IMG/VR virus record: IMGVR_UViG_3300030329_003021
Span: 1 to 47,485 of that record
Strand: one strand, 5' to 3'
Length of the DNA stretch: 47,485 bases
From: a virus
Lineage: Duplodnaviria; Caudoviricetes
The notes below the pieces were generated by a model. It saw only the letters and a list, made by a program, of their open reading frames with translations. It was not told the DNA's origin and searched no databases. The translations under genes and the position numbers were made by a program. This document shows positions 9,781 to 44,382 of this stretch, one piece after another; positions within the stretch are counted from its first letter, which is position 1, and each line of letters starts with the position of its first letter.

Positions 9781-11307
9781 TTAATAATATGGTTCCCTAC
9801 GCCCTCTATAAAATGGTCTTTCGTCTTCTTCATCAAGAAGTGTTCTAATGAAGCCACCTTTTCTAAATCTCATTAACGCCAGAGAAGTTGAATCCACGTA
9901 ATCATCATGCTCACCTGCAGGGAAACTCGCAACCTCATCTACAACTTCTTCTGCCCAGTTCGTATTAGGTATCCAAACTCTACCAGAGGCAAATATATCA
10001 GAAACTGCGTTTAATCTTGATATCTTGTCATTCCCCTTACTTGGTGTAAACTCCTGTACAGGAACACCCATTGCTCTCATCTCGTAAATTAACGGGGCAC
10101 CCGATGCTTTTTTCTCTATAATGATAGAATCAGGGTCCCAATCATTATATTCCTCTAAAGCAACCTTTTTTAACTCAGGAAACTCCATTCTCCTACGAAA
10201 AGCGTTTAATAAAATAATCCGTGCTTGTTTTAATCCCGTTTCATCCTCACTATAAAACACCCCCCATGTCGTACAAGCGGAATAATCTGCCCGATTATTC
10301 TTTTCAAACGCTGTATCCCATGATTGTAATATAAATTCACAATATGGGGGTTCTTCTTTTTCCCAAATCTGCCACCATTCACGTTTTACTATGGCTGCAG
10401 ACTCAGATGTGGGGTTTTGTTGGTACTGAGCCATCCATTTTGAGTGTGGAAGCTCCTCTTTAAGCGCATCTAACTCAATTAAAGGCCAAAATTCAGGCCA
10501 TAACGGATTCCCACTAGGTAAAATTGCAGGAAACTCAATAACTTCCCAGTCTTCACCACCTCTTTGAGTGGCTGCTCGCATTACCTGCCCTGTCAAATCC
10601 CTTTTTGACCACCTTGTCATCACAATAATGATCGCTCCACCCGGTTGTAAACGCTGTCTTGGTCCAGATGTGTACCATTCATACGTTTTATCATAGATTT
10701 CAGGGTTTACTTCTGCTTGGGAGGCTTCTTGCTCCGAATGAGGGTCGTCAATAATGAGGATATCCGCACCTTTACCCGTAACAGCACCTCCAACACCGAT
10801 AGCAAAGTAGTCCCCTCCTTGGTTGGTAGCCCAACGCCCAGCCGCTTTTGAGTCAGCTTGGAGTCCAACGTTTGAAAATATGTTTTTATACGTTTCAGAA
10901 TCAACAAGATTTCGTACCTTTCTACCAAACCCCACCGCAAGTTCTGCAGTGTGGGATGTTTGAATTACTTTTTTATTCGGATACTTACCTAAAAACCACG
11001 CTGGTAACAAATAAGATGCAAATTCACTTTTTGTATGTCGTGGCGGCATGTTTACAATTAATCTTTTACATTGTCCATGAGCTACCTTTTCAAAGGCAGA
11101 TGCCATTCGATGATGATGAGCACCATTTATAAAAGAAGGCCACACCTGTTGCACAAAACTCATAAAAGACTGTTTAGCTTTATCAGCTTGTTCCCTACTC
11201 GCAAGTTCTTCTAGTCCATCGACTATCTCTGCCTTAACTTCAGGCGGTAACTTACTCAGTAGGTGTGGCTTCTTTTTTATCAGATCTAGCGGTGTCGGCT
11301 GCATCAC
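9781..11307 (-). CDS. terL: Terminase large subunit
   Basis: Walker A-like MPPRHTKSE, Walker B LIIDDP, VMTRW coupling motif, nuclease motifs SWDTA, IEKKASG, HDDYVD. Confidence 0.95.
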   Translation of the reverse strand: MMQPTPLDLIKKKPHLLSKLPPEVKAEIVDGLEELASREQADKAKQSFMSFVQQVWPSFINGAHHHRMASAFEKVAHGQCKRLIVNMPPRHTKSEFASYLLPAWFLGKYPNKKVIQTSHTAELAVGFGRKVRNLVDSETYKNIFSNVGLQADSKAAGRWATNQGGDYFAIGVGGAVTGKGADILIIDDPHSEQEASQAEVNPEIYDKTYEWYTSGPRQRLQPGGAIIIVMTRWSKRDLTGQVMRAATQRGGEDWEVIEFPAILPSGNPLWPEFWPLIELDALKEELPHSKWMAQYQQNPTSESAAIVKREWWQIWEKEEPPYCEFILQSWDTAFEKNNRADYSACTTWGVFYSEDETGLKQARIILLNAFRRRMEFPELKKVALEEYNDWDPDSIIIEKKASGAPLIYEMRAMGVPVQEFTPSKGNDKISRLNAVSDIFASGRVWIPNTNWAEEVVDEVASFPAGEHDDYVDSTSLALMRFRKGGFIRTLLDEEDERPFYRGRREPYY

Positions 11308-11851: not shown

Positions 11852-12047
11852 TGAGGAAACGGGACTCCTTTTTTCGTTAGGGGGTGTATATCAGATTTTG
11901 AACCTAACATAAAGTTCCAAAAAAAGCAATGGGGGGTGGGGTAATTTGAAAAATTTAAAATCTAACGAGCAAAACACACAGTACAGACAGCCGGGTCCCA
12001 TCTGACACACACAGGGGGGTGGGGGGTCAAATAAACTATCATATAAA

Positions 12048-12070
12048 GCGTATATACCTAGTATATACGC
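12048..12070 (+). repeat. 23-bp palindrome, copy 1
   Basis: GCGTATATAC-CTA-GTATATACGC, perfect 10-bp arms. Confidence 0.95.
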
Positions 12071-13470: not shown

Positions 13471-13547
13471 AGACCGGCATAGCCGGTCTTTTTTTTGCCC
13501 AGAGAAATCTGGGCTTTTTTTTGCCCAGAGAAATCTGGGCTTTTTTT
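13471..13547 (+). terminator. Three tandem intrinsic terminators
   Basis: AGACCGGC-ATA-GCCGGTCT plus T-run, then two copies of GCCCAGA-GAAA-TCTGGGC each with T7-8. Confidence 0.9.
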
Positions 13548-13715: not shown

Positions 13716-13755
13716 GGACGGGTGGACGGGTGGACGGGTGGACGGGTGGACGGGT
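13716..13755 (+). repeat. Tandem octamer (GGACGGGT) x5
   Basis: Five exact copies. Confidence 0.95.
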
Positions 13756-14829: not shown

Positions 14830-14893
14830 TATCAAGTGTTTATCGACACCCTGTTGGTGTCAATTTGTTTATTTTAACTTTAAGGAGAGTCAT

Positions 14894-15118
14894 ATGTGTT
14901 TACGAGATTTATTGTCAAACGAACAGGTTGCTGAATTAAAAGCACTTGCGAAACAAACCATTCCTAAACGTCCTGTTGTAGTAACTAGAAAACGTGGTAC
15001 GACAACGCATGATGGCAACGTGCCGTTTATCAAGTCCAGACGTGTGGTGTTAATACCAGATGTAAATTTTCCACATGAGATGAACAAGATTGGTGTTGTC
15101 AGAATATCTCATGCGTAG
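14894..15118 (+). CDS. Small hypothetical protein
   Basis: AAGGAGAGT RBS before ATG 14894; the track start at 14807 lies inside the palindrome. Confidence 0.7.
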   Translation: MCLRDLLSNEQVAELKALAKQTIPKRPVVVTRKRGTTTHDGNVPFIKSRRVVLIPDVNFPHEMNKIGVVRISHA

Positions 15119-15284
15119 GTGTGGGTGTGGTAGACATATCACAAAACGTAGGTGGAACGCAGGGCATCATTATTGCCCTGCATGTTTTGTACCTCCTACC
15201 CGTACGGTTGCGTGTGCTTACAACAAGGGAGCGCCACAACTTATCACAAATGTTAATGATTTAAAAACTGTTCATAAAAAATAA
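15111..15284 (+). CDS. Small zinc-finger-like protein
   Basis: CGCG...YCPAC...AYNKGAPQ. Confidence 0.65.
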   Translation: MRRCGCGRHITKRRWNAGHHYCPACFVPPTRTVACAYNKGAPQLITNVNDLKTVHKK

Positions 15285-15294
15285 GGAGAGCGTA

Positions 15295-15876: not shown

Positions 15877-16046
15877 GTAACTCTTACAAGCGTAAGAAAA
15901 AGACGCTCAATAAAATACGATCTCTCATACGTCAAGGACTTGGGGTTATCTTCCATGATGGACAAGTTGTACCATATTGCAAGAAATGGGGAGAACGCAC
16001 GACAAAGGAGAGCGATAAGCAACTACGGAAATGGGGGTTCAAATGA
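15873..16046 (+). CDS. Small basic hypothetical protein, 57 aa (not in track)
   Basis: AGGAG RBS; ATGA overlaps at both ends. Confidence 0.7.
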   Translation: MSNSYKRKKKTLNKIRSLIRQGLGVIFHDGQVVPYCKKWGERTTKESDKQLRKWGFK

Positions 16047-16561
16047 AAATAGAGAAACCAGAAGTAGTCCTTTGTGATATTGACGGCACAATAGCCGACT
16101 GTGAACACAGGCGACATCATGTTACAGGTAAGAAAAAAGATTTCAAGTCTTTCTATGCCGAGCAATACAAGGATGACGCTATTAAAACAACTGTGGCTGT
16201 GTTGGAAGCACTTACAAGAGCTACGTATGGTTTGATTTTTGTATCTGCTAGACCAGAAAAGTACAGAAAAGATACCGAGGAGTGGTTAGCTTCGTGGGTT
16301 TATCTTTTAGTTAAAAATTCTGTGTTAGATGAACAACGCATAAAATACGTGAAAGATATACAAGACTGGGAGTGCCTAGGTTTATTGATGCGACCAGAGG
16401 GAGATTATCGAGCCGACCACATTGTTAAAGAGGAGATTTATTTAAACCGAATCAAACCTCACTACAACGTGTTTATGGTTCTTGATGATCGTCAAAAAGT
16501 TGTAGACATGTGGCGTAAGCATGGGTTGATATGCCACCAAGTAGCTGATGGGAATTTTTAA
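16043..16561 (+). CDS. HAD phosphatase resembling the 3'-phosphatase domain of T4 PseT/PNKP
   Basis: CDIDGT, FVSARPE, LMRPEGDYRAD..VK, VLDDRQKVVDMWR. Confidence 0.9.
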   Translation: MKIEKPEVVLCDIDGTIADCEHRRHHVTGKKKDFKSFYAEQYKDDAIKTTVAVLEALTRATYGLIFVSARPEKYRKDTEEWLASWVYLLVKNSVLDEQRIKYVKDIQDWECLGLLMRPEGDYRADHIVKEEIYLNRIKPHYNVFMVLDDRQKVVDMWRKHGLICHQVADGNF

Positions 16562-19249: not shown

Positions 19250-19275
19250 TATTTTAATTTTAAAAGGAGAGTATT

Positions 19276-20412: not shown

Positions 20413-20443
20413 GAAGTATTTTACATTTTAAAAGGAGAGAAAG

Positions 20444-21364: not shown

Positions 21365-21376
21365 TAAGGAGAGAAT

Positions 21377-23020: not shown

Positions 23021-23247
23021 TGAGTGATTTTAACGAAATGAGGAGAACGCTAATGAGTAATGAAGCTAACGTGGTTTTAAAAGAGAGATGTTATGCCGAA
23101 GCAATCGAGGAAGTTGATAACATGACGCTAAAGCAACTTAAGTCTGTTATTGAAATTCACCCAGATACCCAACAACATATTGATGGGTACATTATAGCAA
23201 AGGCAGAACAGAAGTTTGATAATTTACCTGACGTGGGAGGAGAGTGA
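23020..23247 (+). CDS. Small hypothetical protein (alternative start 23053)
   Basis: Coupled start; internal AGGAG RBS at 23041. Confidence 0.65.
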   Translation: MSDFNEMRRTLMSNEANVVLKERCYAEAIEEVDNMTLKQLKSVIEIHPDTQQHIDGYIIAKAEQKFDNLPDVGGE

Positions 23248-23489
23248 TGAGTGAAAATAAATCTAATTTTTGTTGTGCAAAAGAAAAACTCTTTACTAGT
23301 GGAACAGTTCAGGATTTGATAGATGTCTTGGAGTTGATAGATGACAAGTCATTGCCTATCAGGGTCATTGAACAAGGTAGGGAAGACGAGGGCATTGACA
23401 ATTTCTGGCTGTGCGACATTGAAGTTTCTAGCACAGGTGCTAGTGGCTATGAGCAATCTGGAGAAGTTCGTTTGATAGGGGGAGAGTGA
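23247..23489 (+). CDS. Small hypothetical protein
   Basis: GGAGAG-TGATG junction; TVQDLIDVLE..D motif. Confidence 0.7.
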   Translation: MSENKSNFCCAKEKLFTSGTVQDLIDVLELIDDKSLPIRVIEQGREDEGIDNFWLCDIEVSSTGASGYEQSGEVRLIGGE

Positions 23490-23780: not shown

Positions 23781-23798
23781 CTAAAAAAGGAGAGTAAA

Positions 23799-25037
23799 AT
23801 GAGAACGAAACTTTGTACAACTAAATATGATTTATATAATTATAATTTCTTTGATGACAACAACCTTGTAAAATACCCTGCTGAATCTAGGGAGTGTGAC
23901 TGTTTTAGTAAGTGGTTATCAGATCTACAGGTAGCGATAGATAAAGCTTCTCATGGTACTTGTGAATTACATATAAAAATTGGAGGAAATAATTGGAAGC
24001 CGGGAGCACCACTAGATTCTTTTACTAACAGCGAAAACGTGCATATAACCTTATCGAGTAAAATAAATTCAGTAAGTAAAGATGTTTTAGATATTCTAGG
24101 CTCTCGATATGATCCTATTCCCTACCAAATGTTTGTAATAAAATTAACACATAACATCGTAGACTTTTACGATCCCTTGTTGGTTAAATCTGGTGGAGTT
24201 CGTAAGGTCCCTCATTGGACTATAGAAGAAACAGATGTTTACAATTTAGATACCTATTGGGTGAGGCAATTTAAAGATAGTCTGAGTAGTCAGAAAAAAC
24301 CTAGAGATGTAGTGATGTCGACAACACTAAGGGATAAAGTGATTAAAAAAGCTGTTGAGTTTATAAAATTTATTGGCGATCAAAACTACTCAAGGATAGC
24401 TAGTAAGTTTGCTGCACATTGTGAGGAGAGGGCAAGGTATTCTCTTTCTGAATATCAAAGAACTTTAACAGACAGTTTTGAATGTTCTGCAGTGTCTGTT
24501 AAAAATACAATGGTTTTATGTGAGGCAGTTCTTGATATCAAAGATAAACTTGGTTTAGGGAAAAATGATTCTTGTAATTTTACATCGTCTTTACTCCAAG
24601 AGGTTGAAACTAAGTCTTTACCAAAATATGCAAAATATAAAAAACAGTCAAATTGTTTAGTTAATATACATCTTATTTTTAAAGTGCCTGAAGTTGTAGG
24701 ATACCCTGATGGTGCGTATGCGCTTATTAGTAAGATGGGATTAAATTGGAGCGCAACTAGCAAAAAGATAGACGATAAGTATATTACTTTTCTAACAGAC
24801 GTTTTTTGTCCCGGTCTTCAGGGTAAGTTTAGTTCAGAAGATTCTGAAATTATAAACGCCCACGAGTCCGTGCTTTTTTACTCAGATATTGATTCTATGA
24901 GCACGAACGTCAACTCTTTAGTATCTTTATTAGCTATGACACGTCCAGAATCAGATCACGTAGTAATGATGGAGGGGGTTGGATTTTGGCATCCTTCTAG
25001 CGATACGTATTTGTTGACAGAAAGAGTTGTCAGATGA
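23799..25037 (+). CDS. Hypothetical protein, 412 aa
   Basis: AAGGAGAGT RBS; long ORF, no motif recognised. Confidence 0.8.
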   Translation: MRTKLCTTKYDLYNYNFFDDNNLVKYPAESRECDCFSKWLSDLQVAIDKASHGTCELHIKIGGNNWKPGAPLDSFTNSENVHITLSSKINSVSKDVLDILGSRYDPIPYQMFVIKLTHNIVDFYDPLLVKSGGVRKVPHWTIEETDVYNLDTYWVRQFKDSLSSQKKPRDVVMSTTLRDKVIKKAVEFIKFIGDQNYSRIASKFAAHCEERARYSLSEYQRTLTDSFECSAVSVKNTMVLCEAVLDIKDKLGLGKNDSCNFTSSLLQEVETKSLPKYAKYKKQSNCLVNIHLIFKVPEVVGYPDGAYALISKMGLNWSATSKKIDDKYITFLTDVFCPGLQGKFSSEDSEIINAHESVLFYSDIDSMSTNVNSLVSLLAMTRPESDHVVMMEGVGFWHPSSDTYLLTERVVR

Positions 25038-26883: not shown

Positions 26884-27522
26884 GTGGTTATGGCTATGGG
26901 TAAAAAAAAGAAATTACGAGAGAAAATTTACAAAGAATCGAATAGACCTGTAGGTCATTATCTGATGCCAATAGATAGTTTAGGTTTATCAAATAGAATA
27001 AACAATTCGTTAAAAGCATATGGTATTTTTTACATCGCAGACTTAGTGCAATTTACATCAAAGCAACTATTAGAGTGTGTACCAAATATTAACAAAATAT
27101 CTATCGAAGAAATTGAAAAAGTTATCTTTAAGCATAGATTTACTTTTGAAACTAAAATTTTAATAGACCCTTTGCTTAATGAAATTATTGATAATTTCCA
27201 TACACATATAGTAGATAGCATGAAACAACGAAGAGAATCAACTTTAAAATACGATCCTGTGCTTTCAAGACCAATAGCTGATACATTTATGCGAGACGCT
27301 AACATAGACACTTTACACGGAGAGGGTATTTATACAATTCTTGATTTAGTCCAACGCACTGAAAATGAAATATTACATATACCGTCGATAGGGAAGAAGT
27401 CTTTAGATGACATAAAAACAATTTTAAAACAAAGAGGTTTATCTCTTGGTATGTCAATAACTCAATTAGTTAAGATGAAAGACGAAGAACGAAAAGACAT
27501 CATAAGAAAAGGGTCATGGTAA
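26884..27522 (+). CDS. Protein with two tandem RNA polymerase alpha-subunit C-terminal domains
   Basis: PIDSLGLSNRINNSLKAYGIFYIADLV and DPVLSRPI...DLVQRTENEILHIPSIGKKSLDDIKTILKQRGLSLGM align with RpoA CTD; no alpha-NTD. Confidence 0.88.
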   Translation: MVMAMGKKKKLREKIYKESNRPVGHYLMPIDSLGLSNRINNSLKAYGIFYIADLVQFTSKQLLECVPNINKISIEEIEKVIFKHRFTFETKILIDPLLNEIIDNFHTHIVDSMKQRRESTLKYDPVLSRPIADTFMRDANIDTLHGEGIYTILDLVQRTENEILHIPSIGKKSLDDIKTILKQRGLSLGMSITQLVKMKDEERKDIIRKGSW

Positions 27523-31144: not shown

Positions 31145-31228
31145 TAGAATAAAGACTGACTAAGTAAAAAATTTAAAACGTTACTTTGGTCTGTACGTGT
31201 ATTAAACGTGTTTTAAAAAGGAGAGTAT

Positions 31229-32776
31229 ATGCAAATTATCGAAGACAAAGCTTTACTGCTGAAGGTACGTCAGCCGGAAAAAATTACTACAGTAATACCC
31301 AAAAGTAAATCTGTCTCTTCCCATGAAGTTGTTGTTAACTGGGGTTTAGAAGAGGCTCAAGTTTTAAAAAACTTAAATATAAAGAACGTACCAAGTCCAA
31401 TATATTCTAAATACAAATGGGGTGGGAGATATAAACCATTTGAACATCAAAAAGAAACATCATCCTTTCTTACTTTAAATCGCCGAGCTTTTGTATTTAA
31501 CGAACAAGGCACAGGTAAAACTGCAAGTGTAATATGGGCAGCCGATTACTTAATGAAACTAGGACGTATAAAAAAGGTTCTGGTGCTATGTCCTTTATCT
31601 ATTATGCAGTCGGCTTGGCAAGCTGATTTATTTAAATTTGCCGTTCATAGAACAGTGGGTATAGCGCACAGTTATTCACGAGAAAAAAGAATTGACGTGG
31701 TTAATTCTGATGTTGAGTTTGTGATTTGTAATTATGATGGACTACAAATTATACGAGATGCAGTAAACGAAAACGAATTTGATCTAGTAGTTGTTGATGA
31801 AGCTAACGCTTATAAAACGGTTACTACTAAACGATGGAAGATACTAAATTCTATAATAAAACCTCATACATGGGTTTGGATGTTAACTGGCACACCTGCC
31901 TCACAATCACCTACAGACGCTTATGGTTTAGCTAAAATTATTAATCCTAGTGGTGTACCAAAATATTTTGGGTCATTTAAAGACATGGTGATGTATAAAG
32001 TTTCAGAATTTATATGGCTTCCTAAAGATAAAGCAGAAGACGTTGTACACAAAGCACTACAACCTGCTATTCGTTTTACAAAAGAGGAGTGTTTAGATTT
32101 ACCAGAAATGACATACACAACAAGACAAGTACCTCTTACAAAACAACAAAATACATTCTACGAAAAAATAAGAAAAGATATGTTAACCATTGCAGCCGGA
32201 GAAGAGATAACAACCGTTAACGCTGCGGCTAACCTAAATAAACTACTACAATTAAGTTGTGGTGCCGTCTACACAGATAACGGTGAAACAGTTGAATTTG
32301 ATGTATCTAACCGATTACGAGAATTAACACAAGTTATTGATGAAGCAAGCCATAAAGTTATCGTGTTTGCGCCTTACCGACACGCTATAAATCTTATTGA
32401 GGACTATTTACTTAAAAATAAATATACGTGTGATGTGATACACGGAGGGGTTTCTGTTCATGCAAGAACCGATATCTTTAATAGATTCCAAACAACAAAA
32501 GACCCACAAATTTTAGTCATACAACCTCAAGCTGCATCGCATGGAGTAACTCTTCATGCTGCTAATGTGGTGGTATACTGGTCAGCCGTTATGTCTGTAG
32601 AAACTTACTTACAGGCAAACGCAAGAGTGCATCGAGCCGGGCAGAAAAACCCTTGCACAGTAGTTCATTTACAAGGCTCAAACGTAGAGAAGAAAATGTA
32701 TAAAATGCTTCAATCTAAAATAGACGTTCATAATAAATTGATTGATTTATACAAAAATATTATTGACAATGTATAA
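31229..32776 (+). CDS. SNF2-like superfamily 2 helicase
   Basis: EQGTGKT, VVDEAN, LTGTP, HGVTL, QANARVHRAGQ. Confidence 0.92.
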   Translation: MQIIEDKALLLKVRQPEKITTVIPKSKSVSSHEVVVNWGLEEAQVLKNLNIKNVPSPIYSKYKWGGRYKPFEHQKETSSFLTLNRRAFVFNEQGTGKTASVIWAADYLMKLGRIKKVLVLCPLSIMQSAWQADLFKFAVHRTVGIAHSYSREKRIDVVNSDVEFVICNYDGLQIIRDAVNENEFDLVVVDEANAYKTVTTKRWKILNSIIKPHTWVWMLTGTPASQSPTDAYGLAKIINPSGVPKYFGSFKDMVMYKVSEFIWLPKDKAEDVVHKALQPAIRFTKEECLDLPEMTYTTRQVPLTKQQNTFYEKIRKDMLTIAAGEEITTVNAAANLNKLLQLSCGAVYTDNGETVEFDVSNRLRELTQVIDEASHKVIVFAPYRHAINLIEDYLLKNKYTCDVIHGGVSVHARTDIFNRFQTTKDPQILVIQPQAASHGVTLHAANVVVYWSAVMSVETYLQANARVHRAGQKNPCTVVHLQGSNVEKKMYKMLQSKIDVHNKLIDLYKNIIDNV

Positions 32777-32791: not shown

Positions 32792-32838
32792 TTAGTATTA
32801 TTAATTATAAGTATTCTATTAATCGGAGGGAGAGAACG

Positions 32839-33225
32839 ATGAAAGTAGATAAATTGGTTAAAGTTTACGTAAAAATTCGTGACGAGCGAAAAAAGATTTT
32901 AAGCGATTACGAGAAGAGAGATTCTGAATTAAAAGAAAGTTTAGAGACTATCGAAGAGGCATTGCTAGAGGTTTGTAAAGATACAGGCGCAGATAGTTTA
33001 CGTACAGAATTTGGAACAATAACTAGACGGGTACAAAAACGTTATAGGACGGCTGACTTTGAGGCGTTTTCTTCGTTTGTTAAAGAAAATGATGCAATAG
33101 AATTACTTGAAAAGCGTATCTCTCAAAACAACATGTCTACGTTTCTCCAAGAAAACCCAGATAAAATACCTCCCGGATTAATTGTAGATAGTAAATATGC
33201 TATCTCTGTTCGTAGAAAGACCTAA
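32839..33225 (+). CDS. Replication-module coiled-coil protein
   Basis: KLVKVYVKIRDER...SLRTEFGT...LLEKRI...PPGL. Confidence 0.7.
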   Translation: MKVDKLVKVYVKIRDERKKILSDYEKRDSELKESLETIEEALLEVCKDTGADSLRTEFGTITRRVQKRYRTADFEAFSSFVKENDAIELLEKRISQNNMSTFLQENPDKIPPGLIVDSKYAISVRRKT

Positions 33226-35160: not shown

Positions 35161-38043
35161 ATGTTATCAAAAAAAGACTTTTTTTCTTTTGTTCTACCAA
35201 CAAATGGTTCGTATTGTTTATTTACTTTGAAAGATGTAGGACAGCCTGAGAAAGTAACCAAACAAATATTTGTAGATACAAAGGAAGAATTAGTATTAAA
35301 AACAGATGAATTAATTAAAGACAAATGGGATATTTATGTAGCTGTTGCAACTTTTAATGGTGATGGTCGCCGTACAAAAGAAAAAGCAAAAGCAATTAAA
35401 TGTTTTTTTGTAGATATAGATTGTGGAGAAAAGAAACCTTACAAGACCCAAGAGGAAGGAACATTAGCACTAAAGAAGTTTTGTAAGAAAACAAATCTTT
35501 GCAAACCATCTTTAATTATTAATTCAGGTAATGGGCTGCACGTTTACTGGGTCTTAGAGAATGAAATAGAAACTTCTAAGTGGGTAGGGATTGCTGAATC
35601 TTTAAAAAGTTCGTGTATTAGTGAGGGCTTCTTAGTTGATAATGCAGTAACAGCAAATGCTGCACAGATATTAAGAGTTCCAGAAACTTTAAATTTTAAA
35701 AATAACAATGATCCAAAGCCGGTAGAAGTCTTATTGCATGGAGCTAAATTAAATCTTTCCTCTATGCAGGATTGTTTAAATACAGATATATCTATCTTTG
35801 AAGAATTAAAGAACAGAGATTTTTCTAAACAAATAAATCCTACGTCTCTAACACTTCAAAAAAACTACAAAAATATATTTAAAACAATCTATAAGAAATC
35901 CATGCAGGGTGTGGGGTGCGCTCAAATAAAATATGCGTATGAGAATCAAGAAACTTTAGCAGAACCTTTGTGGCGAGCCATGTTGTCTATAGCAGAAAGA
36001 TGTGTAGATAAGGAAACAGCAATAAAAAAGATGTCTCAAAAGTATCCTAAATACAATATGGAGGAGGCACTTAATAAAGCAAGTTTAACAAAAGGCCCAT
36101 ATACTTGCGCTTGGTATAAAAAAGAAAACTCTAAAATATGTGAAGGATGTAAGTTAAAAATAACCTCCCCTATAATCATTGGTAAAGAGGTAATACAAGC
36201 ATCAGAAGAAGATAATGTCATAGACGTAATTGAGAACGGTACTGAAAACAAAAAGACTTACAATATACCTGAGTATCCTTTTCCATTTTATCGGGGAAAA
36301 GTTGGGGGTATATATAGAAGAGCAGATGTACCTAAAAATAGTGATGAAGTAGTTAGAGATGAATTAATCTACCCATATGACTTTTATGTTGTTAAAAGAA
36401 TCCATGACCCAGAAGATGGGGAAAGTATTTTATTACGGTTACATCTACCAAAAGATGGGGTAAGAGAGTTTATAATACCTTTGAGTTCTACACTAGCTAA
36501 AGATAAATTTTTATCTTCTATATCATTTCATGGCATAACCGTACTAGGAAAGAAACAGGATCATCTTATGCAATATATAAATAGATCAGTAGAGAAATTA
36601 CAAAGCGAAAAGAAAGCAGAGATTGCTAGACGACAATTTGGTTGGACAGAAGACGATGGTGTTTTTGTTTATGGTGATAAAGAAATTAAAGTTGGTGCAA
36701 AAGAACCTATGTATAGCCCTCCTACCACGGCTACTCTTATTCTTGTTCCAATGTTTCACGAAAAAGGGGATTTTCACACATGGAAAGATATTATAAACGC
36801 TTATGCACATGAAGATAGAATAGGTAAAGCTTTTGCATTTTTTATGGGTTTTGGTGGCCCTCTTATGAAGTTTGTAGGAGATGGTATGTTAGACGGGCTA
36901 TTATTTAATTTATTTTCTCCGGGTAGTGGGGTAGGTAAATCCTCTGTGCTTCATTTAATGAATAGCATTTATGGTAATCCAAAAGCTTTAATATTAAAGT
37001 CTAGTGACACACATAACTCTCGTATGCAAAGGTTAGGCACTATGCAAAACCTAACACCCACAATTGATGAAATAACAAACTTAGATCCAAGATTAATGAG
37101 TGATCTGGTATATGACATTACATCTGGACGAGGTAAAAATAGAATGGACGCAAGAGTAAATAGAGAAAGACTTAATAAAACTACTTGGTCTATACCTGTG
37201 GTATCAACATCTAACACAAGAATTAGAGATGCTCTTTTATCAATTAAAGCTTTTCCTGACGCTGAATTAATGCGTGTATTAGAAGATAAATTACCCGTTG
37301 ATAAGTTTGATGATCCTACTTGGTCTAAAGCACATTTTGGTAGGGTAAGTAAACACTATGGGCATGCTATAAAGCCATATATAGAATATTGTGTGAACAA
37401 TTTACCAGATGTAATTGCAAGACTTAATGAAATAAATGAAAAAATGGATAAAGCTGCTGAAATAAAAAACACAGAAAGGTTTTGGTCAGCAGGCACAGCC
37501 GTGGCACTAACAGGAGGTATTATAGCTAAAGAGTTAGGCTTGCACGACATACCTATACAACCTGTTTTTGATTATGCAGTTAGTCTTGTAAAAAGTAGTC
37601 GTAAGAGTAACAAAGATTCTTTAACTGAATATGGGGAAATATTGGGGGCTTTCTTAAACTCGCATCCTTTAGGTATTACAGTTGTTAATGTTAAAAAAGA
37701 TAAACGCACTGGGTTAGATATGGGCGCTATAAAAGAACCTAGAACTTCATGCGTGGCCAGAATAGAAAAAGATGAGAATAGACTATACGTATCTAAATCT
37801 ATGTATCAACAATATTGTAGTAAAAACTTTATAAGTTTTGAGGATTCTTTGTTGGATTATAAGAAAAACGGTTCTTACAGAGGTATAAAAAAGAAAAGAA
37901 TGTTAGCAGGTACATCCATTGCTAGTGCATCAAATAGTGTTCGATGCCTTGAGTTTGATACTAAAAAGTTAGATAGTTTTGATTTAGAGGTGTTTACAGA
38001 TGATAAAGATAATGGGTCTAGCAGTGAAGATATCTTGGATTGA
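35161..38043 (+). CDS. Primase-helicase fusion (RepB-like primase plus DUF927-type helicase)
   Basis: FVDIDC, NSGNGLHVYW, ILRVPET; Cys cluster; RQFGW; Walker A SGVGKS, Walker B TIDE. Confidence 0.88.
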   Translation: MLSKKDFFSFVLPTNGSYCLFTLKDVGQPEKVTKQIFVDTKEELVLKTDELIKDKWDIYVAVATFNGDGRRTKEKAKAIKCFFVDIDCGEKKPYKTQEEGTLALKKFCKKTNLCKPSLIINSGNGLHVYWVLENEIETSKWVGIAESLKSSCISEGFLVDNAVTANAAQILRVPETLNFKNNNDPKPVEVLLHGAKLNLSSMQDCLNTDISIFEELKNRDFSKQINPTSLTLQKNYKNIFKTIYKKSMQGVGCAQIKYAYENQETLAEPLWRAMLSIAERCVDKETAIKKMSQKYPKYNMEEALNKASLTKGPYTCAWYKKENSKICEGCKLKITSPIIIGKEVIQASEEDNVIDVIENGTENKKTYNIPEYPFPFYRGKVGGIYRRADVPKNSDEVVRDELIYPYDFYVVKRIHDPEDGESILLRLHLPKDGVREFIIPLSSTLAKDKFLSSISFHGITVLGKKQDHLMQYINRSVEKLQSEKKAEIARRQFGWTEDDGVFVYGDKEIKVGAKEPMYSPPTTATLILVPMFHEKGDFHTWKDIINAYAHEDRIGKAFAFFMGFGGPLMKFVGDGMLDGLLFNLFSPGSGVGKSSVLHLMNSIYGNPKALILKSSDTHNSRMQRLGTMQNLTPTIDEITNLDPRLMSDLVYDITSGRGKNRMDARVNRERLNKTTWSIPVVSTSNTRIRDALLSIKAFPDAELMRVLEDKLPVDKFDDPTWSKAHFGRVSKHYGHAIKPYIEYCVNNLPDVIARLNEINEKMDKAAEIKNTERFWSAGTAVALTGGIIAKELGLHDIPIQPVFDYAVSLVKSSRKSNKDSLTEYGEILGAFLNSHPLGITVVNVKKDKRTGLDMGAIKEPRTSCVARIEKDENRLYVSKSMYQQYCSKNFISFEDSLLDYKKNGSYRGIKKKRMLAGTSIASASNSVRCLEFDTKKLDSFDLEVFTDDKDNGSSSEDILD

Positions 38044-38200
38044 TTTTAAACCTGATACTTCCATTTTTATCCCCTGTTTAGATATAAACCCCGTAAAAGA
38101 ATATGTTTTAGCAGAAGCAAATAGGCGTAAATATGACGTAATATGCAAACAAGTGGTGGAGAAGAACAAATATGGGTTGCGATGTTGGAGAGTAAAATGA
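38000..38200 (+). CDS. Small hypothetical protein
   Basis: W..F....SIFIPC...GLRCWRV; last plus-strand gene. Confidence 0.7.
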   Translation: MIKIMGLAVKISWIDFKPDTSIFIPCLDINPVKEYVLAEANRRKYDVICKQVVEKNKYGLRCWRVK

Positions 38201-38207
38201 TAACATT

Positions 38208-38324
38208 GGGTGTAATTTACTCATTTTAAATTACCCTGACTTTTTTGTGGTTTGACTCTCCTTCCCAAATGATAAAAAAGTCTACTTGCCCTTGGTGGTT
38301 GGACATACCATCAAGGGCTTTTTT
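38208..38324 (+). ncRNA. Candidate small RNA or structured 3' element with anti-Shine-Dalgarno loop
   Basis: Three consecutive hairpins; middle loop ACTCTCCTTCC; possible TTGCGA-18-TAACAT promoter with extended -10 TG at 38177-38206. Confidence 0.5.
38288..38324 (+). terminator. Intrinsic terminator at the convergence point
   Basis: GCCCTTGGTGGT-TGGACAT-ACCATCAAGGGC-TTTTTT. Confidence 0.85.
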
Positions 38325-41300
38325 ATCTACCTAAGATATTTTTCTTTATATACGGTATATTTATAATCCGTATAATGTCGTTATCTAACTTATCTATCTC
38401 ATTCACTAACCTAGTTTTTTCTGCTGATGGTAAGGTACGATCTTCATTTATAATCCGTTTAAGCGCCCTAGTATCACTAAGTTGCGTTTGAACTGCTCGC
38501 ACTGATTCACCTAAAATATATAGTTTAAGGTTTTCATCTTCTTCTAAAAGCCTAATTAAACCTTCAAAATCTTGACGATTTATTAATAAGTTAACTGTGT
38601 CCGTAACTCTTGCCTGTTCATCTCTAAATTTATAGTATTCCGACTTATCACCAGACGGTATCTTGTCATACGAAAAAGTTTTAAATGCAGGTAATTCATA
38701 CAGGTTATATTCCTTACGCCCCATAACTTTAGAACTAATCACGTTAGTTAAATCTATTAAAGTGCCCCCTGCTATACCTGTCATTCCTCTAATAAGATAT
38801 TCTGTTTTTATAGGACTTAATCCAGTAAACCGACCAATAATTTTAGTTAATTCAGATGTTGAAGAAGTAAATTGTTCCTCCGAAGCCACATCTTCTAATC
38901 CTCTAGGAACTATGGGAGCATCTCTAAAGAATGAGTAATTTAAAAACACTTCAGCAGGGGCTTTAAAAGCTTGGGGTGTTAAGTTAGGACTAGAGAATGA
39001 ATCAAAAGCCGCACGTGTTAGGTTTTCTCTAAATGTTTGAGCATCTTCTGGTCTTGCTGTACCTTGACTAATAACATAATTAATAGATCTTTCAGGTATA
39101 ACTTTAAACAAAAACCCTATCTCTGGAGCAACAGGTATTTTACGGCCCGTACCGGGTATTATAAAGTTTTTATCTTTTACGTACTCATTTTGTTGTTGAT
39201 ACTCTTCGTCCTCTCCAACTAAGAACGTATAAATTGTACTAAGTGTCGCCAGTTTGAGGCCTGCTTTTAAGAATAATCTTTGTGCTATATATTTTTCCCT
39301 TTGGCTAACGCCCACACCTTGCATGGTTCTTAAATACACACTCATACCTTGAATATAAGCGTTCATAAACGGAACAATTTGTCTTAACACACTTACATAT
39401 CTATTTGCACCTTGACGTTTAAAATTAATAATTTCTTGCGCTGCAATACGTGCTGCTAATACATCACCATCAGGAAACTGTTCTGATTTTGTTTCTTCTA
39501 AAGTTTGCTCATACACAGCCCTTCTTAGGTTAGCATCCGATGCTATTGAAAAGTTTTCAAAAAAATCAAAAAATTTTCTAGTTCTACCTCTTTGTTTTAA
39601 GTTAAAAGCAGTAAGCACTTCATCTTTTTCTCTTCCCGGCATAAAATCATATGCGCCTACGATACCATACCGCTTTAATTGTTCCACTACTTCATTTGTA
39701 CCTAATCTAACTGAACCATAACTTAACGGATTTATAACTCTGGTTGCTGTTTTGAATGGGTTATCTGTTCCTGATAAAGTCATAGCTCTAAAACTATCTT
39801 GAAACAACTGACTAATAGCAAACTGTGGTGTTGCAGTAACACCTTTTCTTAATAAATTAGACAAACCTGTCATAGCTTTTATAATAGGTCCACTTATCAC
39901 TTCAAGACCTTTAAACGCATACACGTCTAAGATATCGTCAAATGCGTAGTATTCTGCCTTACCATTTCTATATACGGTTACTATATTATCTGCATCTTTA
40001 TCTACATTTTTATCCGGAATTTTTTCTATATTTAAATCATTTTTAATCCAAGTATCTACAATAGATAAAGCCGCATGGTTACGCATAGAACTTTTGACCA
40101 TCCAAAACGTAAGACCAACCATATTTTCTAAAACACTATTTATTTCGTCTTTACTACCCTTTAGTGGCCCCATTTCTCTAGTGCTAAGTGGTTTAAAAAA
40201 TTGTGCAGGAGTTTGTGAAAATATCTTTTCTTCATTTTCTTTTATTCTGTCCCAAGGCACATACCCTATAGCCTTTTTCCACTCTGTTGCCCTTTCTTTA
40301 GATAGTCTTCCAGCGTCAACCATATTATCAAGCAAGCCGTTTTTAAAAGAAGTAAATTCTTGATGAATTTCATTTATTATGTCGTATCTTTTTAGTATCT
40401 CTTCCCCTACTTTTATTTGCTCCTTAGTAGGTAATAACTCATCAGGGATTATACCTTTTCCTATTAAGTCTTTTGCTCTAATTATAATTAAACCATCATT
40501 AACTAATTTTTCTGCTTTTTTAATATCTCCTAGCTCTTCTCCTAACCTACCAACTTTCTCAAATACCCCTGTTAAAGAAGCATCTCCTTGAGTAGCTTCA
40601 AACCCAGATACCTTGTTAAAAACTAACCTACCCAACCTCATCACTGCGGTAGACAAAGAATCAGCATGTTCTGTTTGTAACATTAATATATCAGGTCTAA
40701 TATCGCCTATCGCATCTCTAGTTTTATTGTTGTATAATTTTCTTGCTTTTCTCTCAACAGAAGACCCTTTGTATGCTATTTGTGCTTCTAGTTTCCTTGC
40801 AACATTAGAAAGAAATCTAGGCGCTTCAAAAATAGCACTAGATATTGTGCTAAAAAAACCGGGTGTTGGGCCTTTAGAATTAGAAACATTCATATCTAAA
40901 AAGTTATTGACTAACATATCATCAGCCATGACTGAAGCATCTCTAAACATAAACCTCTCAGCACCTGTTTCTGTGCCTACGGTTTTTTTACGCTCTGCCT
41001 TTACTTTGTTATTTATCACATAATTAGCAGACTGAGCAATAATATCTTGTACTTCGATATTATTTAAAATAGGAAATCCTAAATCCTGCATGGCTCGTTT
41101 TATTGCTTTTAGAGACGCACGGAGTAGCTTTTGCAAAGCTGCCATAAACCCTTCTTGCCCTGCCTCAGGTCTTCTTCCGACAAATGTATTCTCCACTGCC
41201 ACTGCAATTAATTCTTCAACAGCTTCCTCTTTAGATAGTCCTTGTTCTTTCATTAGTTGGTTGGCAGCATATTGTATTTCTTTGTCGGTGTTATACAACC

Positions 41301-44300
41301 TATTCATAGTTTCTTTATAATCTTTACCAAGAATAGATCTAAGACCATAGTGTCCTATAGATTCGTGCAGAATAGTTTTTAATACATCTTTTTTGTTTGT
41401 GTTATTAGCTGCTATGACATAAACAGTGTTTGTATTACTGTCAAATATACCTTTTATGTTTCTCTGCTGTTCGGGTGATAACCTATTTAGTTTCTCAAGA
41501 CTATACATACCCTCCATAATTCTATCCACACCGCCTACAGCCATATCTTGTTCTGTGATTTTTATTAAATCAGGAAAGTTATTTACAACTTTAATTTCAG
41601 GTGCGTTTTTCCAACCTTTTGTTAGCTCTTTTACAAAACCCTCTATACGTCCAACAAATTCAGGAACTTCTATAATCTCAGGTTCTTTTCTTCTACCTCT
41701 TGGCGGTTTTTCAGCTTTTTCTCCTTTAAATTTAGGAGTTACACGAACATTTTCTACTTTCTCTATAAATTCAACTGCTTTTGCTTCGGTTGGTGAAACC
41801 TCTCTTACTTCTTTTTTAACTTCTTCATATATCCCTTGTAGTTCTTTTATATCATTTAGTAATAAATCTTTTTCGCCTTGCAGCTCTATATCATCAGGTT
41901 TTTCTTTTAATTCTTTATTTACATCTCTTAAATCTAATTCTGCTTTTATTAATTCTGCTCTTGCAGCGGCGAGTTTTCTAATTGGTCCTTTTATTAATAA
42001 ATCTTGTATTTCTTTTGCAGAATTATCTACATAGCTTTTTTGCGCTTTATTTAATTTGTTATAAACTTTTCTAGCGGCTCCTCTAGCTCTTTTTTGTGGT
42101 CTTAACAAATCTCCCGCTAGTAAACGTAATCTTCTTTTATTTAAACCGTCTTTCCCTTTACCGCCTTCAGCTACAAACTGTTCTACATATTTATTAAATA
42201 CTTTTTGTTCTGCAGTTTGTGACTCTTCATATTCTTCTCTAGTAGCAGCTTTTTGTTCCTCTGTGGCTCCTGCAGGTGAGCTTAGTCTTTCAACATAAGG
42301 TTGGTATAAATTTAAAGCAGGATTGTTTTCAAATATCGTATCTTTTGTTATTGTGTTAACATTTTTTTGTTCTAATTTAACTACTTTTTTCTCTTTATTA
42401 AACTCTTTTTGTATTTTTGGTACAATAGCTTGGTCACGAATTAAACTTGGGTCTTCTGCATAAGCTCTACTAAAGTCTTTCAATGTCATATTCGCACGAA
42501 CATTAGCCTCTGCGCCTCTTTCTTGTACAGAATCTCTATAGTCATCACCCTCTCTATCCGAGTAATATTCTTTTAGTAAAATATTTTTTTGTTCAGGTGT
42601 AGAATTTTCTATTGCTTCACGGAAAAAGTTTTGTTGGTCAGAAGTAAGAAACACTCCCGGTTTCCCTGCTTCTCTAGCAATATTAAGCGCTTGCTCAAAC
42701 GTGTTTTCAACAACTTTTTTCCTATTTTTATCAGATTTTTCTTTTATTCTTGGTAAAAATTCTTCAATCTTAGTTGCTACATTAGGATGTCCTTTAGCAT
42801 ACGTATCTAAAGCATCGTAAAAATCAGGATTCGTAATAGACTCACCCTTTAAATTAGGATTAGCTCTAAAAAAAGAACGTGCGGATTGAGATGGAAGATT
42901 AATCTTTTGTTTTAAAAAATCAGCAGTAATTTTATCCGTATTTTTTATTTTAGTGTCAACTTGATTTTTTCTTTTATTTATTCTGTTATTAGCATCCTTT
43001 GTTCTATTTTTAAAAGAAGGTACATTTACGTTTTTTTGTGCCTCATCTAAGTTACGGTTTTTATCTACTTCTCCTGATGTAACTTGGTTTGCGGTATCAG
43101 GAGTTATATCACCCTTTTCATCAAATAATCCTAATTGAGTATCTGGCACTGAAATTGGAGATACAAAACCTTTTTTTCTTTCAGCTTCTGGTAATAATTT
43201 TTTCTTTTTTTCAACCTTTCCTCTTAAATTTTTTATATAATTTTCTATTTTTTGTATTTGTGGTTCTATTTTTGCTCTATCTTGAGGGGCAGATATTTTT
43301 TGTTGTTCTATCAAATCTTTTTTGTTTCTTTCAAATCTAGTTAAATCTTGCTCCGCTTCTAATATATATTGTCTAGCTTCTTCTCTATCTTCTTCTTTTG
43401 TTATCGGTCCCTCAACTCTCTTTTCTGCCGCTTTTATTAATTCTGATTGCGCTTTATCTTCTTCTGTAGGTTGTGGTAATCCTGTTAATGCAAGTTGATC
43501 GCCTTTCTCAATGGGTCTTTCTTTTGGTTTGGCTGGTTCAATTTTTCTAGCTCTTGGTACGGCTAAGTCAAACAACCCTTGTGCTAACGCACCAACTGCG
43601 CCACCATATGCGGCTTCTTCTCCTATACCTTCTACAAGTTCTTGTTCAGGTTTATACCCACTTTTTGCAATCGCATTTTGTGCAAACCCTGCAGCGGCTT
43701 CTGTAGCTGCTTCTATCCCACCTGTCTCTAACGCTCTACCAACTCTTTGCACACCACTTTCAATAACACCTGCGTCTAATTTTTTTAATATCCTAGCAGG
43801 GGCAAAAAGTTCTAATAGACCTACAGGTGCACCATACGCTGTTGCTGTTGCTATTTGTTCTGGAGTAGCTTCTGCTTCTTCTGCACGTAACCTAGCTTCT
43901 CCTGCTCCTGCGCCCGTAGCTAATGCAGTAACTGCAGCTTTACCAACTATACCAAAAGGAGCAAACGCTAAAAATGGAATAAAAGAACCAAATGCTTCGC
44001 CAAACTTCCTACCAACAGTTTCTTCATATCCGGGAGTTGGCGCTGCAAATTCTTTAAATGGTTTTAATACATCTGTTGCTGTATCACGGATACCTTGCTC
44101 TGTTACAAGGCCCTCGTCATCTGCTAATGCAGAAGCACCAACAGCCGCAGTTTCAACTAACCCTGCCGCACCGGGAATAATACCTTTAAAAAATTCCTTT
44201 GTTTGGCCAGTTATGTCGCTAAAGTCAAGCTCGTCATCTGTTGCTTTTAGGGCTGTCGTTAACTGATCGTAATTTAAACCTTCAGACTGTAAATACATTT

Positions 44301-44382
44301 CTACTGTACCTTCAGGAGCTTCTGAATTTGCTATTTTTAAGACATTTCTAGCTATTGCTTCATATCTTTGTCTTGGAGTCAT
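38323..44382 (-). CDS. Large internal virion/polyvalent protein, 2019 aa, with metallopeptidase-like motif and LPD38-like C-terminus
   Basis: A/G-rich N-terminus; ILHESIGHYGL followed by EE; INFKRQG...PFMNAYIQG and EVFLNYSFFRDAPIVP. Confidence 0.75.
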   Translation of the reverse strand: MTPRQRYEAIARNVLKIANSEAPEGTVEMYLQSEGLNYDQLTTALKATDDELDFSDITGQTKEFFKGIIPGAAGLVETAAVGASALADDEGLVTEQGIRDTATDVLKPFKEFAAPTPGYEETVGRKFGEAFGSFIPFLAFAPFGIVGKAAVTALATGAGAGEARLRAEEAEATPEQIATATAYGAPVGLLELFAPARILKKLDAGVIESGVQRVGRALETGGIEAATEAAAGFAQNAIAKSGYKPEQELVEGIGEEAAYGGAVGALAQGLFDLAVPRARKIEPAKPKERPIEKGDQLALTGLPQPTEEDKAQSELIKAAEKRVEGPITKEEDREEARQYILEAEQDLTRFERNKKDLIEQQKISAPQDRAKIEPQIQKIENYIKNLRGKVEKKKKLLPEAERKKGFVSPISVPDTQLGLFDEKGDITPDTANQVTSGEVDKNRNLDEAQKNVNVPSFKNRTKDANNRINKRKNQVDTKIKNTDKITADFLKQKINLPSQSARSFFRANPNLKGESITNPDFYDALDTYAKGHPNVATKIEEFLPRIKEKSDKNRKKVVENTFEQALNIAREAGKPGVFLTSDQQNFFREAIENSTPEQKNILLKEYYSDREGDDYRDSVQERGAEANVRANMTLKDFSRAYAEDPSLIRDQAIVPKIQKEFNKEKKVVKLEQKNVNTITKDTIFENNPALNLYQPYVERLSSPAGATEEQKAATREEYEESQTAEQKVFNKYVEQFVAEGGKGKDGLNKRRLRLLAGDLLRPQKRARGAARKVYNKLNKAQKSYVDNSAKEIQDLLIKGPIRKLAAARAELIKAELDLRDVNKELKEKPDDIELQGEKDLLLNDIKELQGIYEEVKKEVREVSPTEAKAVEFIEKVENVRVTPKFKGEKAEKPPRGRRKEPEIIEVPEFVGRIEGFVKELTKGWKNAPEIKVVNNFPDLIKITEQDMAVGGVDRIMEGMYSLEKLNRLSPEQQRNIKGIFDSNTNTVYVIAANNTNKKDVLKTILHESIGHYGLRSILGKDYKETMNRLYNTDKEIQYAANQLMKEQGLSKEEAVEELIAVAVENTFVGRRPEAGQEGFMAALQKLLRASLKAIKRAMQDLGFPILNNIEVQDIIAQSANYVINNKVKAERKKTVGTETGAERFMFRDASVMADDMLVNNFLDMNVSNSKGPTPGFFSTISSAIFEAPRFLSNVARKLEAQIAYKGSSVERKARKLYNNKTRDAIGDIRPDILMLQTEHADSLSTAVMRLGRLVFNKVSGFEATQGDASLTGVFEKVGRLGEELGDIKKAEKLVNDGLIIIRAKDLIGKGIIPDELLPTKEQIKVGEEILKRYDIINEIHQEFTSFKNGLLDNMVDAGRLSKERATEWKKAIGYVPWDRIKENEEKIFSQTPAQFFKPLSTREMGPLKGSKDEINSVLENMVGLTFWMVKSSMRNHAALSIVDTWIKNDLNIEKIPDKNVDKDADNIVTVYRNGKAEYYAFDDILDVYAFKGLEVISGPIIKAMTGLSNLLRKGVTATPQFAISQLFQDSFRAMTLSGTDNPFKTATRVINPLSYGSVRLGTNEVVEQLKRYGIVGAYDFMPGREKDEVLTAFNLKQRGRTRKFFDFFENFSIASDANLRRAVYEQTLEETKSEQFPDGDVLAARIAAQEIINFKRQGANRYVSVLRQIVPFMNAYIQGMSVYLRTMQGVGVSQREKYIAQRLFLKAGLKLATLSTIYTFLVGEDEEYQQQNEYVKDKNFIIPGTGRKIPVAPEIGFLFKVIPERSINYVISQGTARPEDAQTFRENLTRAAFDSFSSPNLTPQAFKAPAEVFLNYSFFRDAPIVPRGLEDVASEEQFTSSTSELTKIIGRFTGLSPIKTEYLIRGMTGIAGGTLIDLTNVISSKVMGRKEYNLYELPAFKTFSYDKIPSGDKSEYYKFRDEQARVTDTVNLLINRQDFEGLIRLLEEDENLKLYILGESVRAVQTQLSDTRALKRIINEDRTLPSAEKTRLVNEIDKLDNDIIRIINIPYIKKNILGR

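Follow-up and report, generated by a model that had tools for sequence, protein, structure and literature searches.

The early shut-off that has been worked out at the mRNA level is carried out by a protein, RegB; to our knowledge, how early genes are shut off in lytic phages using host RNA polymerase and host-type promoters is largely open. According to the available part of the source on phage T4, RegB inactivates early mRNAs at an extended GGAG Shine-Dalgarno (SD) motif with the consensus GGAGRAYARAA, late GGAG transcripts are spared, and the decay of early mRNA involves polynucleotide kinase (PNK) at a step following RegB (PMC3014915). Several RNAs bear comparison, each as described in the accessible portions of its source: the antisense RNA c4 of phages P1 and P7, whose loops pair in trans at the RBS region and in which sequence differences set the specificity between related phages (PMC12197685); RsaE, in which an unpaired pyrimidine-rich motif pairs with the SDs of several mRNAs and prevents initiation (PMC2790875); and DapZ and MicL, which are Type I 3'-end-derived sRNAs with ORF-internal promoters (PMC7038943). 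The Hfq-binding sRNA module is described in the same limited way as a U-rich linker, a hairpin and a tail of 7 or more U (PMC5558911).

The locus compared with these systems lies in a 47,485-nt stretch of viral DNA (the window), which is a linear record, 75% complete, with a podovirus-like layout. Genes were classed as early or late by strand. The early or replication arm (about 12177-38200, plus strand) encodes an AAA ATPase, a DUF2201/VWA gene, DNA polymerase, exonuclease, an SNF2 helicase and a DUF927 primase-like gene, and the late arm (minus strand) encodes terminase, portal, GroES, capsid and internal virion proteins. The unit is located at the meeting point of the convergent arms, flanked by a 66-aa ORF (38000-38200, plus strand) and by the last late gene, which encodes 2019 aa with an LPD38 domain (38323-44382, minus strand) and whose stop codon overlaps the U-tract of the unit. 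At the sequence level the unit has promoter-like and terminator elements, an antisense orientation and a seed that co-varies with early starts and not with late starts. Judging from these features, it probably encodes a stand-alone small RNA whose seed pairs with a barcode in the SDs of early genes, likely blocking early translation and sparing late genes.

The predicted sigma-70-type promoter is held by the last codons of the 66-aa ORF (38177-38206, plus strand), with the -35 element TTGCGA at 38177-38182, a TGn extension at 38198-38200 and the -10 element TAACAT at 38201-38206, the TG (38198-38199) being part of the TGA stop codon of the ORF. The possible extended -10 promoter of the preliminary description gained comparative support from relatives, but was not called by a plain promoter scan of the window. 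The predicted RNA, of about 112 nt (38212-38324, plus strand), would start at 38211-38214 and has the same position and orientation in relatives. None of three RNA runs covered the unit, which speaks neither for nor against its transcription. Its fold includes the AU-rich hairpin 1 (38212-38234, plus strand), which is absent from the folds of relatives; hairpin 2 (38238-38282, plus strand), with an 11-nt loop ACTCTCCTTCC at 38255-38265 that is predicted to be unpaired; and a one-directional intrinsic terminator common to the early operon (38288-38324, plus strand), with a hairpin at 38288-38318 followed by T6. The hairpins seen at the first inspection are present, but number three with the terminator included, not three plus a terminator. 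The seed UGACUCUCCUUCC (38253-38265, plus strand) contains the loop and is complementary to extended early SD sequences.

Folding of the unit region gave z = -5.2, with 0 of 200 shuffles folding as well, and in an alignment of eight long-type RNAs 9 of the 23 predicted pairs (hairpin 2 and terminator taken jointly) had changed on both sides. An SD plus start codon was found inside none of the 77 distinct RNAs described below. Rfam 15, which includes C4 and RsaE, gave no gathering-score match in the window or at the unit in 12 relatives, and Rfam covariance models at 38100-38400 gave chance-level hits alone (E > 1). The 66-aa protein has a confident structure model without a solved match and a weak DUF7303 lead (score 0.85), and its predicted fold gave no functional clue.

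Relatives were gathered solely by protein similarity, some contigs being fetched twice. In the first set, 144 loci were scanned and the small ORF was found in 122, of which 7 were cut off and 115 analysable; the second set held 80 metagenome loci. The automatic rule asked for a TAnnnT hexamer 17-18 nt behind the codon supplying the -35, plus a terminator, the -35 itself not being part of the filter. It was passed by 103/115 loci in the first set and by 63/67 analysable loci in the second. Among the 12 failures of the first set, four (L055, L056, L132 and L139) still hold the unit by eye or by model, and it is missing from eight (L060-63, L065, L156, L157 and L165), so the unit is dispensable in some lineages. 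In the L156/L157 lineage the unit is gone and the late stop codon abuts the small ORF, while L153 keeps the unit; this absence is a natural loss. At the start of the DUF7307-like gene, L157 carries GGAGAGAGC and L153 carries GGAGAGUGC. The opposite arrangement is seen in L059, where, after the primase stop codon at 10448, the small ORF is lost and a consensus TTGACA-17-TATAGT promoter and the RNA are retained.

The neighbouring ORF's pattern is matched by an estimated 1400 or so stored viral stretches, so the family, one of aquatic phages, is common. No close cultured phage was present in the phage collection searched, where the best identities were 27% for the primase, up to 40% for the helicase and up to 73% for the capsid and where the window had no nucleotide relatives. 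Three hits in this collection (H16-H18), all 65,014 bp long and with the same capsid score, are each named after a different cyanobacterial host, and are possibly one phage isolated three times. The unit model had no full match in 38-50 kb of each of Rollin, RHph_TM3_14A, Pag-Yong1, DSL-LC04 and HTVC023P, the unit was absent by eye at three junctions of distant cultured phages, and the cultured phage CRP-804 has a weak small-ORF match in a different context. The sole host hint is the distant relative L208, a possibly mis-binned contig in a Sulfitobacter MAG with 31% primase identity. By eye, L208 has a unit at about 11860-11935, whose GUUGGUUCUCC matches its own helicase and g231 starts.

The first-set units comprise 77 distinct RNAs of 50-113 nt from 22 small-ORF clades. 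The commonest form in relatives is 50-73 nt long; it has GCACUCU at the 5' side, then a core of UUCUCC type, part of which lies in a weak hairpin, and after this a UU linker followed by the terminator. The form of 100-113 nt, in which the seed lies in a loop and the stems show compensatory changes, is limited to the window's clade and one neighbour clade. A covariance model built from 55 short RNAs, many of whose hits are its training sequences, found one strong copy of the unit per genome and misses both the window's long variant and L208. The Leu codon supplying the -35 is TTG or TTA in 72/72 cases, compared with 90/256 for Leu codons elsewhere in these ORFs. The TG extension is present in 33/34 units with an 18-nt spacer and in 9/43 with a 17-nt spacer; on these patterns the predicted ORF-internal promoter is under selection.

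The consensus seed is GCACUCUnCUUCUCC, and both UCCU and CUCC occur in the seed of 67/77 RNAs. A CU-rich single-stranded core in a short, terminator-bounded unit would also suit a decoy that mimics the 16S tail and absorbs a nuclease or an anti-SD-binding protein. A mimic of the invariant rRNA tail should itself be invariant, however, whereas the flanks of the core vary in step with early starts and 5/77 RNAs have neither UCCU nor CUCC, and we regard a decoy as highly improbable.

All the sequences quoted in the preliminary description lie at the coordinates it gave, and TGACTCTCCTT at 38253-38263 is, as it reported, the exact complement of 14882-14892. Its identification of that site as the first early RBS was mistaken, as the gene at 14894 is not the first on the plus strand and ORFs 12189 and 13123 come earlier. 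The window contains AAGGAGAGT four times on the plus strand, each time before a start codon, and once on the minus strand, within the unit itself. The complements of the loop reported at early RBSs are present, but AAGGAGAG also occurs within genes at 16005 and 20335.

Each of several genomes has its own barcode at early starts: AAGGAGAGU at 4 in the window, with ACUCUCCUU; AAGGAGAGC at 5 in G001, with GCUCUCCUU; GAGAGUGAA at 6 in G002; CUUGGAGAA at 4, 6 and 6 in G012-G014; AAGGAGCUA at 4 in G019; and AGGAGAAGA at 4 in G018. None of these barcodes occurs in the late starts of its own genome. Six genomes have a single exact 9-mer hit and G020 has none; counting the best own exact 9-mer, 52/621 early and 2/511 late starts are matched. 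Exact 9-mer matches at four or more early starts were obtained with 21/20000 shuffled loops, and with 596/20000 when the CTCCT core was kept. Because 3% of random loops keeping CTCCT match as well, the window alone, without its relatives, is only suggestive.

Gene starts were called with a custom program that applies a generic SD score, and energies were computed by a custom accessibility-corrected duplex script; a first duplex scan without the accessibility term was uninformative. The 13 best-pairing start regions in the window are all early, and -12 kcal/mol was reached there by 13/45 early and 0/21 late starts, two late starts with AAGGAGGU approaching this cut-off (-12.0, rounded, and -11.5). 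Across genomes, 110/576 early and 15/511 late starts reached -12 kcal/mol or better. RNAs of other clades likewise prefer early starts (49 against 18.5 hits), so the early/late gap is partly family-wide. The motif GGAGAG is present at 75/621 early and 3/511 late starts across genomes, and GGAGAU at 24/621 and 24/511. AGGAGAT, which had been put forward as the late-gene RBS, occurs at 3/45 early and 4/21 late starts of the window, and these counts together with those for GGAGAU contradict that assignment. The proposed discrimination between early and late RBSs is upheld in that early starts are preferred, but the discriminator is an extension of the SD found at early genes only, not a late GGAGAT.

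The presence of UCCU and CUCC in most seeds means that the RNA would pair with many host SDs. Host mRNAs might then be the main targets of a general anti-SD shut-off, the match to early starts having a common cause such as a host-specific SD preference. Late genes, however, share the ribosomes without having the barcodes, and the barcodes exceed the CCUCC anti-SD core, as that core is given in the available text of PMC10783764, and vary among phages. A generic anti-SD also fails to separate the arms in the window (early -8.8 against late -8.6, p = 0.31), although it does so in some relatives. Primary targeting of the host is accordingly judged very unlikely.

Of 105 predicted duplexes, at least 70% span positions -11 to -3 and about 30% extend as far as the start codon. 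Their pairs are 95% Watson-Crick and 5% G-U, and G-U content, tried as a discriminator between RNA and DNA, did not separate the two. Wobble pairing is thus little separate proof against a DNA-level site that is repeated at early starts and inverted once at the junction, or against the locus being merely the terminator region of the early operon. Against either, the antisense orientation is fixed behind a selected promoter, the seed is kept in a loop by stems that have undergone compensatory changes, and in G005 the seed ACUUUCCU faces AGGAGAGU, which needs G-U pairs, in 12 early starts and AGGAAAGU in none. There is, in our estimate, hardly any chance that the unit is not an RNA.

Co-variation was assessed by scoring each RNA against each start region (-22 to +8) as the sum of the duplex energy and the energy needed to open the RNA, with RNA and locus averages removed. 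A locus's own RNA was compared with the RNAs of other clades at loci with at least 7 starts, clades being 72% clusters of the small ORF, one of them large and chained, rather than branches of a tree. At early starts the own RNA was better in 62/63 loci and 19/19 clades (p 1.9e-6), and this holds against GC-matched RNAs; at late starts, by the same scoring, it was better in 7/13 clades. The same pattern was found in 18 long or complete genomes, where the own RNA was better at early starts in 17/18 genomes and 10/10 clades (p 0.001), at late starts in 9/14 genomes and 3/8 clades, and at SD-like words inside early genes in 13/18 genomes and 6/10 clades. The own RNA won in 25/31 disjoint pairs, and in only 11/16 of the closest ones, those with 70% identity or more in the small ORF (p = 0.11). 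In the second set, which is related to the first (RNA similarity 0.66-0.98), it was better in 19/20 loci and 8/9 clades. Co-variation failed at L104/G020 and L245 and was weak at L057. The check that loop and early RBSs co-vary across related phages, suggested at the outset, was therefore passed with late-gene and intragenic controls, and the seed appears to change in step with its own early starts and not with late starts.

The best predicted target, which was missing from the original target list, is the SD region (32825-32834, plus strand; -18.8 kcal/mol) of the 128-aa DUF7307-like gene 32839-33225, the first gene after the consensus promoter at 32763. This start is also the steadiest target, the own RNA being better in 19/20 clades and 21/23 second-set loci, and perfect duplexes of at least 9 bp are formed there in 29/70 loci, compared with 0/75 at the primase and 0/34 at the polymerase. 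Other predicted targets on the plus strand of the window are the SDs of the AAA ATPase gene 19276 (19264-19272), the first one downstream of the 19178 consensus promoter, of the 74-aa early ORF 14894 (14882-14892; a perfect 11-bp match) and of the 412-aa ORF 23799 (23787-23795), the start region of ORF 23247 (23234-23248; -16.4 kcal/mol), and, with 8 bp each, the SDs of ORF 20444 (20432-20439), the DUF2201/VWA-like gene 21377 (21366-21373) and the 42-aa ORF 15295 (15283-15290). The SD of the SNF2 helicase 31229-32776 (31218-31226, plus strand) is a predicted target with mixed results, the own RNA being better in 14/19 clades and 13/21 second-set loci. The gene behind the consensus promoter at 25014 is not among the predicted targets.

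The ATPase cluster and the first early ORFs are recurrent predicted targets in long genomes, and individual relatives have long pairings of 14 bp with the own helicase start (L128), 12 bp with the own DUF7307-like start (L055) and 11 bp across GUG (L053). The reach over early genes proposed at first therefore stands for several starts, but those of the polymerase, exonuclease and primase gave no co-variation signal with the seed, which seems to address only part of the early arm.

Several further features of the early arm were observed. A near-palindrome with the core TATATACCTAGTATATA is present in eight copies, in both orientations, at 12051, 13073, 13660, 13771, 14348, 14403, 14809 and 19229; these surround the start of the early arm and sit just after the consensus promoters 14286 and 19178, and are candidate operators or origin/packaging sites. 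Ahead of the early genes, non-coding DNA at 13497-13547 and 13718-13755 contains a duplicated short hairpin with a T-run and a tandem repeat of GGACGGGT. A gene at 26896-27522 (plus strand) encodes a pair of RNA polymerase alpha C-terminal domains (PF03118, E 2.5e-22), and its product may regulate transcription or act as a decoy. Two relatives carry an int-alpA RNA (RF02996, Rfam; L038:3126-3189 and L051:1997-2062) immediately before the primase start, where the window has just 16 nt.

The seed has diversified fast, with 77 distinct RNAs in 22 clades, and although the C-terminal part of the primase is 86% identical between the window and L002, the stems and seed flanks of the two differ. Such diversity would also be expected of an immunity or superinfection-exclusion RNA of the C4 type, which would silence the early genes of an incoming phage of the same type or hold a carrier state, the barcodes acting as immunity types. 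A precedent exists in the heteroimmunity of P1 and P7, where the loops of c4 act against the RBS region (PMC12197685, in its accessible part), and a host-type promoter would be continuously on. Tyrosine integrase was found in 0/10 and resolvase in 0/5 near-complete genomes, however, so lytic shut-off is favoured over prophage immunity; moreover, the predicted targets are many genes of the replication arm instead of one antirepressor, and neither C4 nor any other Rfam family matches the unit. An immunity role is consequently considered unlikely as the main explanation, and is in any case compatible with early shut-off by the RNA.

In the favoured reading, early shut-off, host RNA polymerase would make the RNA from the ORF-internal promoter, and the seed would pair around positions -11 to -3, in many cases as far as the start codon, and exclude the 30S subunit, possibly with the help of host Hfq. 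No phage-encoded Hfq was found in 5/5 genomes. Among the predicted targets, namely the DUF7307-like gene, the SNF2 helicase, the ATPase cluster and several first early ORFs, are genes that head promoter-driven units, so translation of coupled downstream genes would drop too. Repression would act on the translation of the early arm, and the gene that opens the RNA's own operon would be among those repressed. The gene for the RNA closes the early arm, and replication would raise its dosage, which would give a delayed negative feedback freeing ribosomes for late mRNAs. The unit lacks the palindromic repeat seen near some early promoters, and we infer late timing of the RNA from this, its last place in the early arm and replication dosage. 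The class of the promoter is uninformative on timing, because promoters upstream of the small terminase also look sigma-70-like in several genomes.

The junction has no intrinsic terminator for the late operon (38318-38325 in the window), a minus-strand U-tract being present in only 1/77 units. Because the minus-strand terminator is missing, late transcripts may continue antisense into the RNA and the early arm; Rho-dependent termination of these transcripts at the junction is possible. Because the terminator of the unit acts in a single direction, read-through from the late operon could titrate the RNA and neutralise it late. The same arrangement, together with the late stop codon overlapping the U-tract in the window and a promoter of host type, could be taken to mean that the RNA damps early and replication genes as soon as infection begins, and that antisense read-through of the late operon titrates it away afterwards. 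This reverse order is quite improbable, since it is not clear what a late release of early genes would gain, and early mRNA, too, would be met by antisense from this read-through.

With regard to known RNAs, the unit has the two features of Type I 3'-end-derived sRNAs that are found in DapZ and MicL, a same-strand promoter internal to an ORF, as indicated by sequence and codon selection, and a terminator shared with the mRNA. It differs from both in being phage-encoded and in having its own gene class as predicted targets, including the first gene of its own operon. Its 3' end resembles the Hfq module as far as the accessible text defines it, with a UU linker ahead of the terminator hairpin in 74/77 units and a U-tail, but the terminal run is 7 or longer in only 33/77 (6 in 27/77 and 4-5 in 17/77). 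The unit shares with RsaE an unpaired pyrimidine motif complementary, here by prediction, to several SDs; in the available description RsaE, from Firmicutes, has a conserved UCCC and metabolic targets, whereas the present seed is of UCUCCU type with variable flanks and lacks an Rfam match. Among phage RNAs c4 is the closest in the literature portions at hand; it acts on one antirepressor operon in temperate phages, whereas many early targets are predicted here, no integrase was detected and Rfam gave no match.

Functionally, the closest system is T4 RegB. In both, an extended GGAG motif marks early and not late starts (here GGAGAG, at the frequencies given above), but RegB is a protein nuclease with one consensus, while the reader here is a predicted RNA and the motif is phage-specific and co-varying. 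No RegB label was found among the 66 PHROGs-labelled or 20 Pfam-labelled ORFs of the window, which is 75% complete. A polynucleotide kinase-like gene was observed at 16031-16561 (plus strand). No phage sRNA addressing a class of its own phage's genes through a co-evolving early SD code was found in the literature, as covered mostly by open-access sources. The Fremin 2023 catalogue contains 10,006 viral candidate RNAs, and six motifs and six contig identifiers were not found in the searchable part of its supplements; the motif of the unit could be in that catalogue as a candidate without a function (PMC10690425).

The chances appear evenly divided for the broader proposal that SD barcodes private to each lineage, read by one RNA of 50-110 nt, form the early-to-late switch of an uncultured lytic phage family, an RNA-guided equivalent of RegB that co-evolution reprograms and that may also serve as an immunity code among relatives infecting the same cell. 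If true, early shut-off would have a new solution in one small RNA whose RBS code is specific to each lineage, and this would be a natural case of one sRNA co-evolving with many targets in some 20 clades. It would offer ready cognate and non-cognate pairs, testable in E. coli without phage culture, and possibly orthogonal translational repressors for synthetic biology. The pairing chemistry is known, and the logic of the system in RNA form appears to be new.
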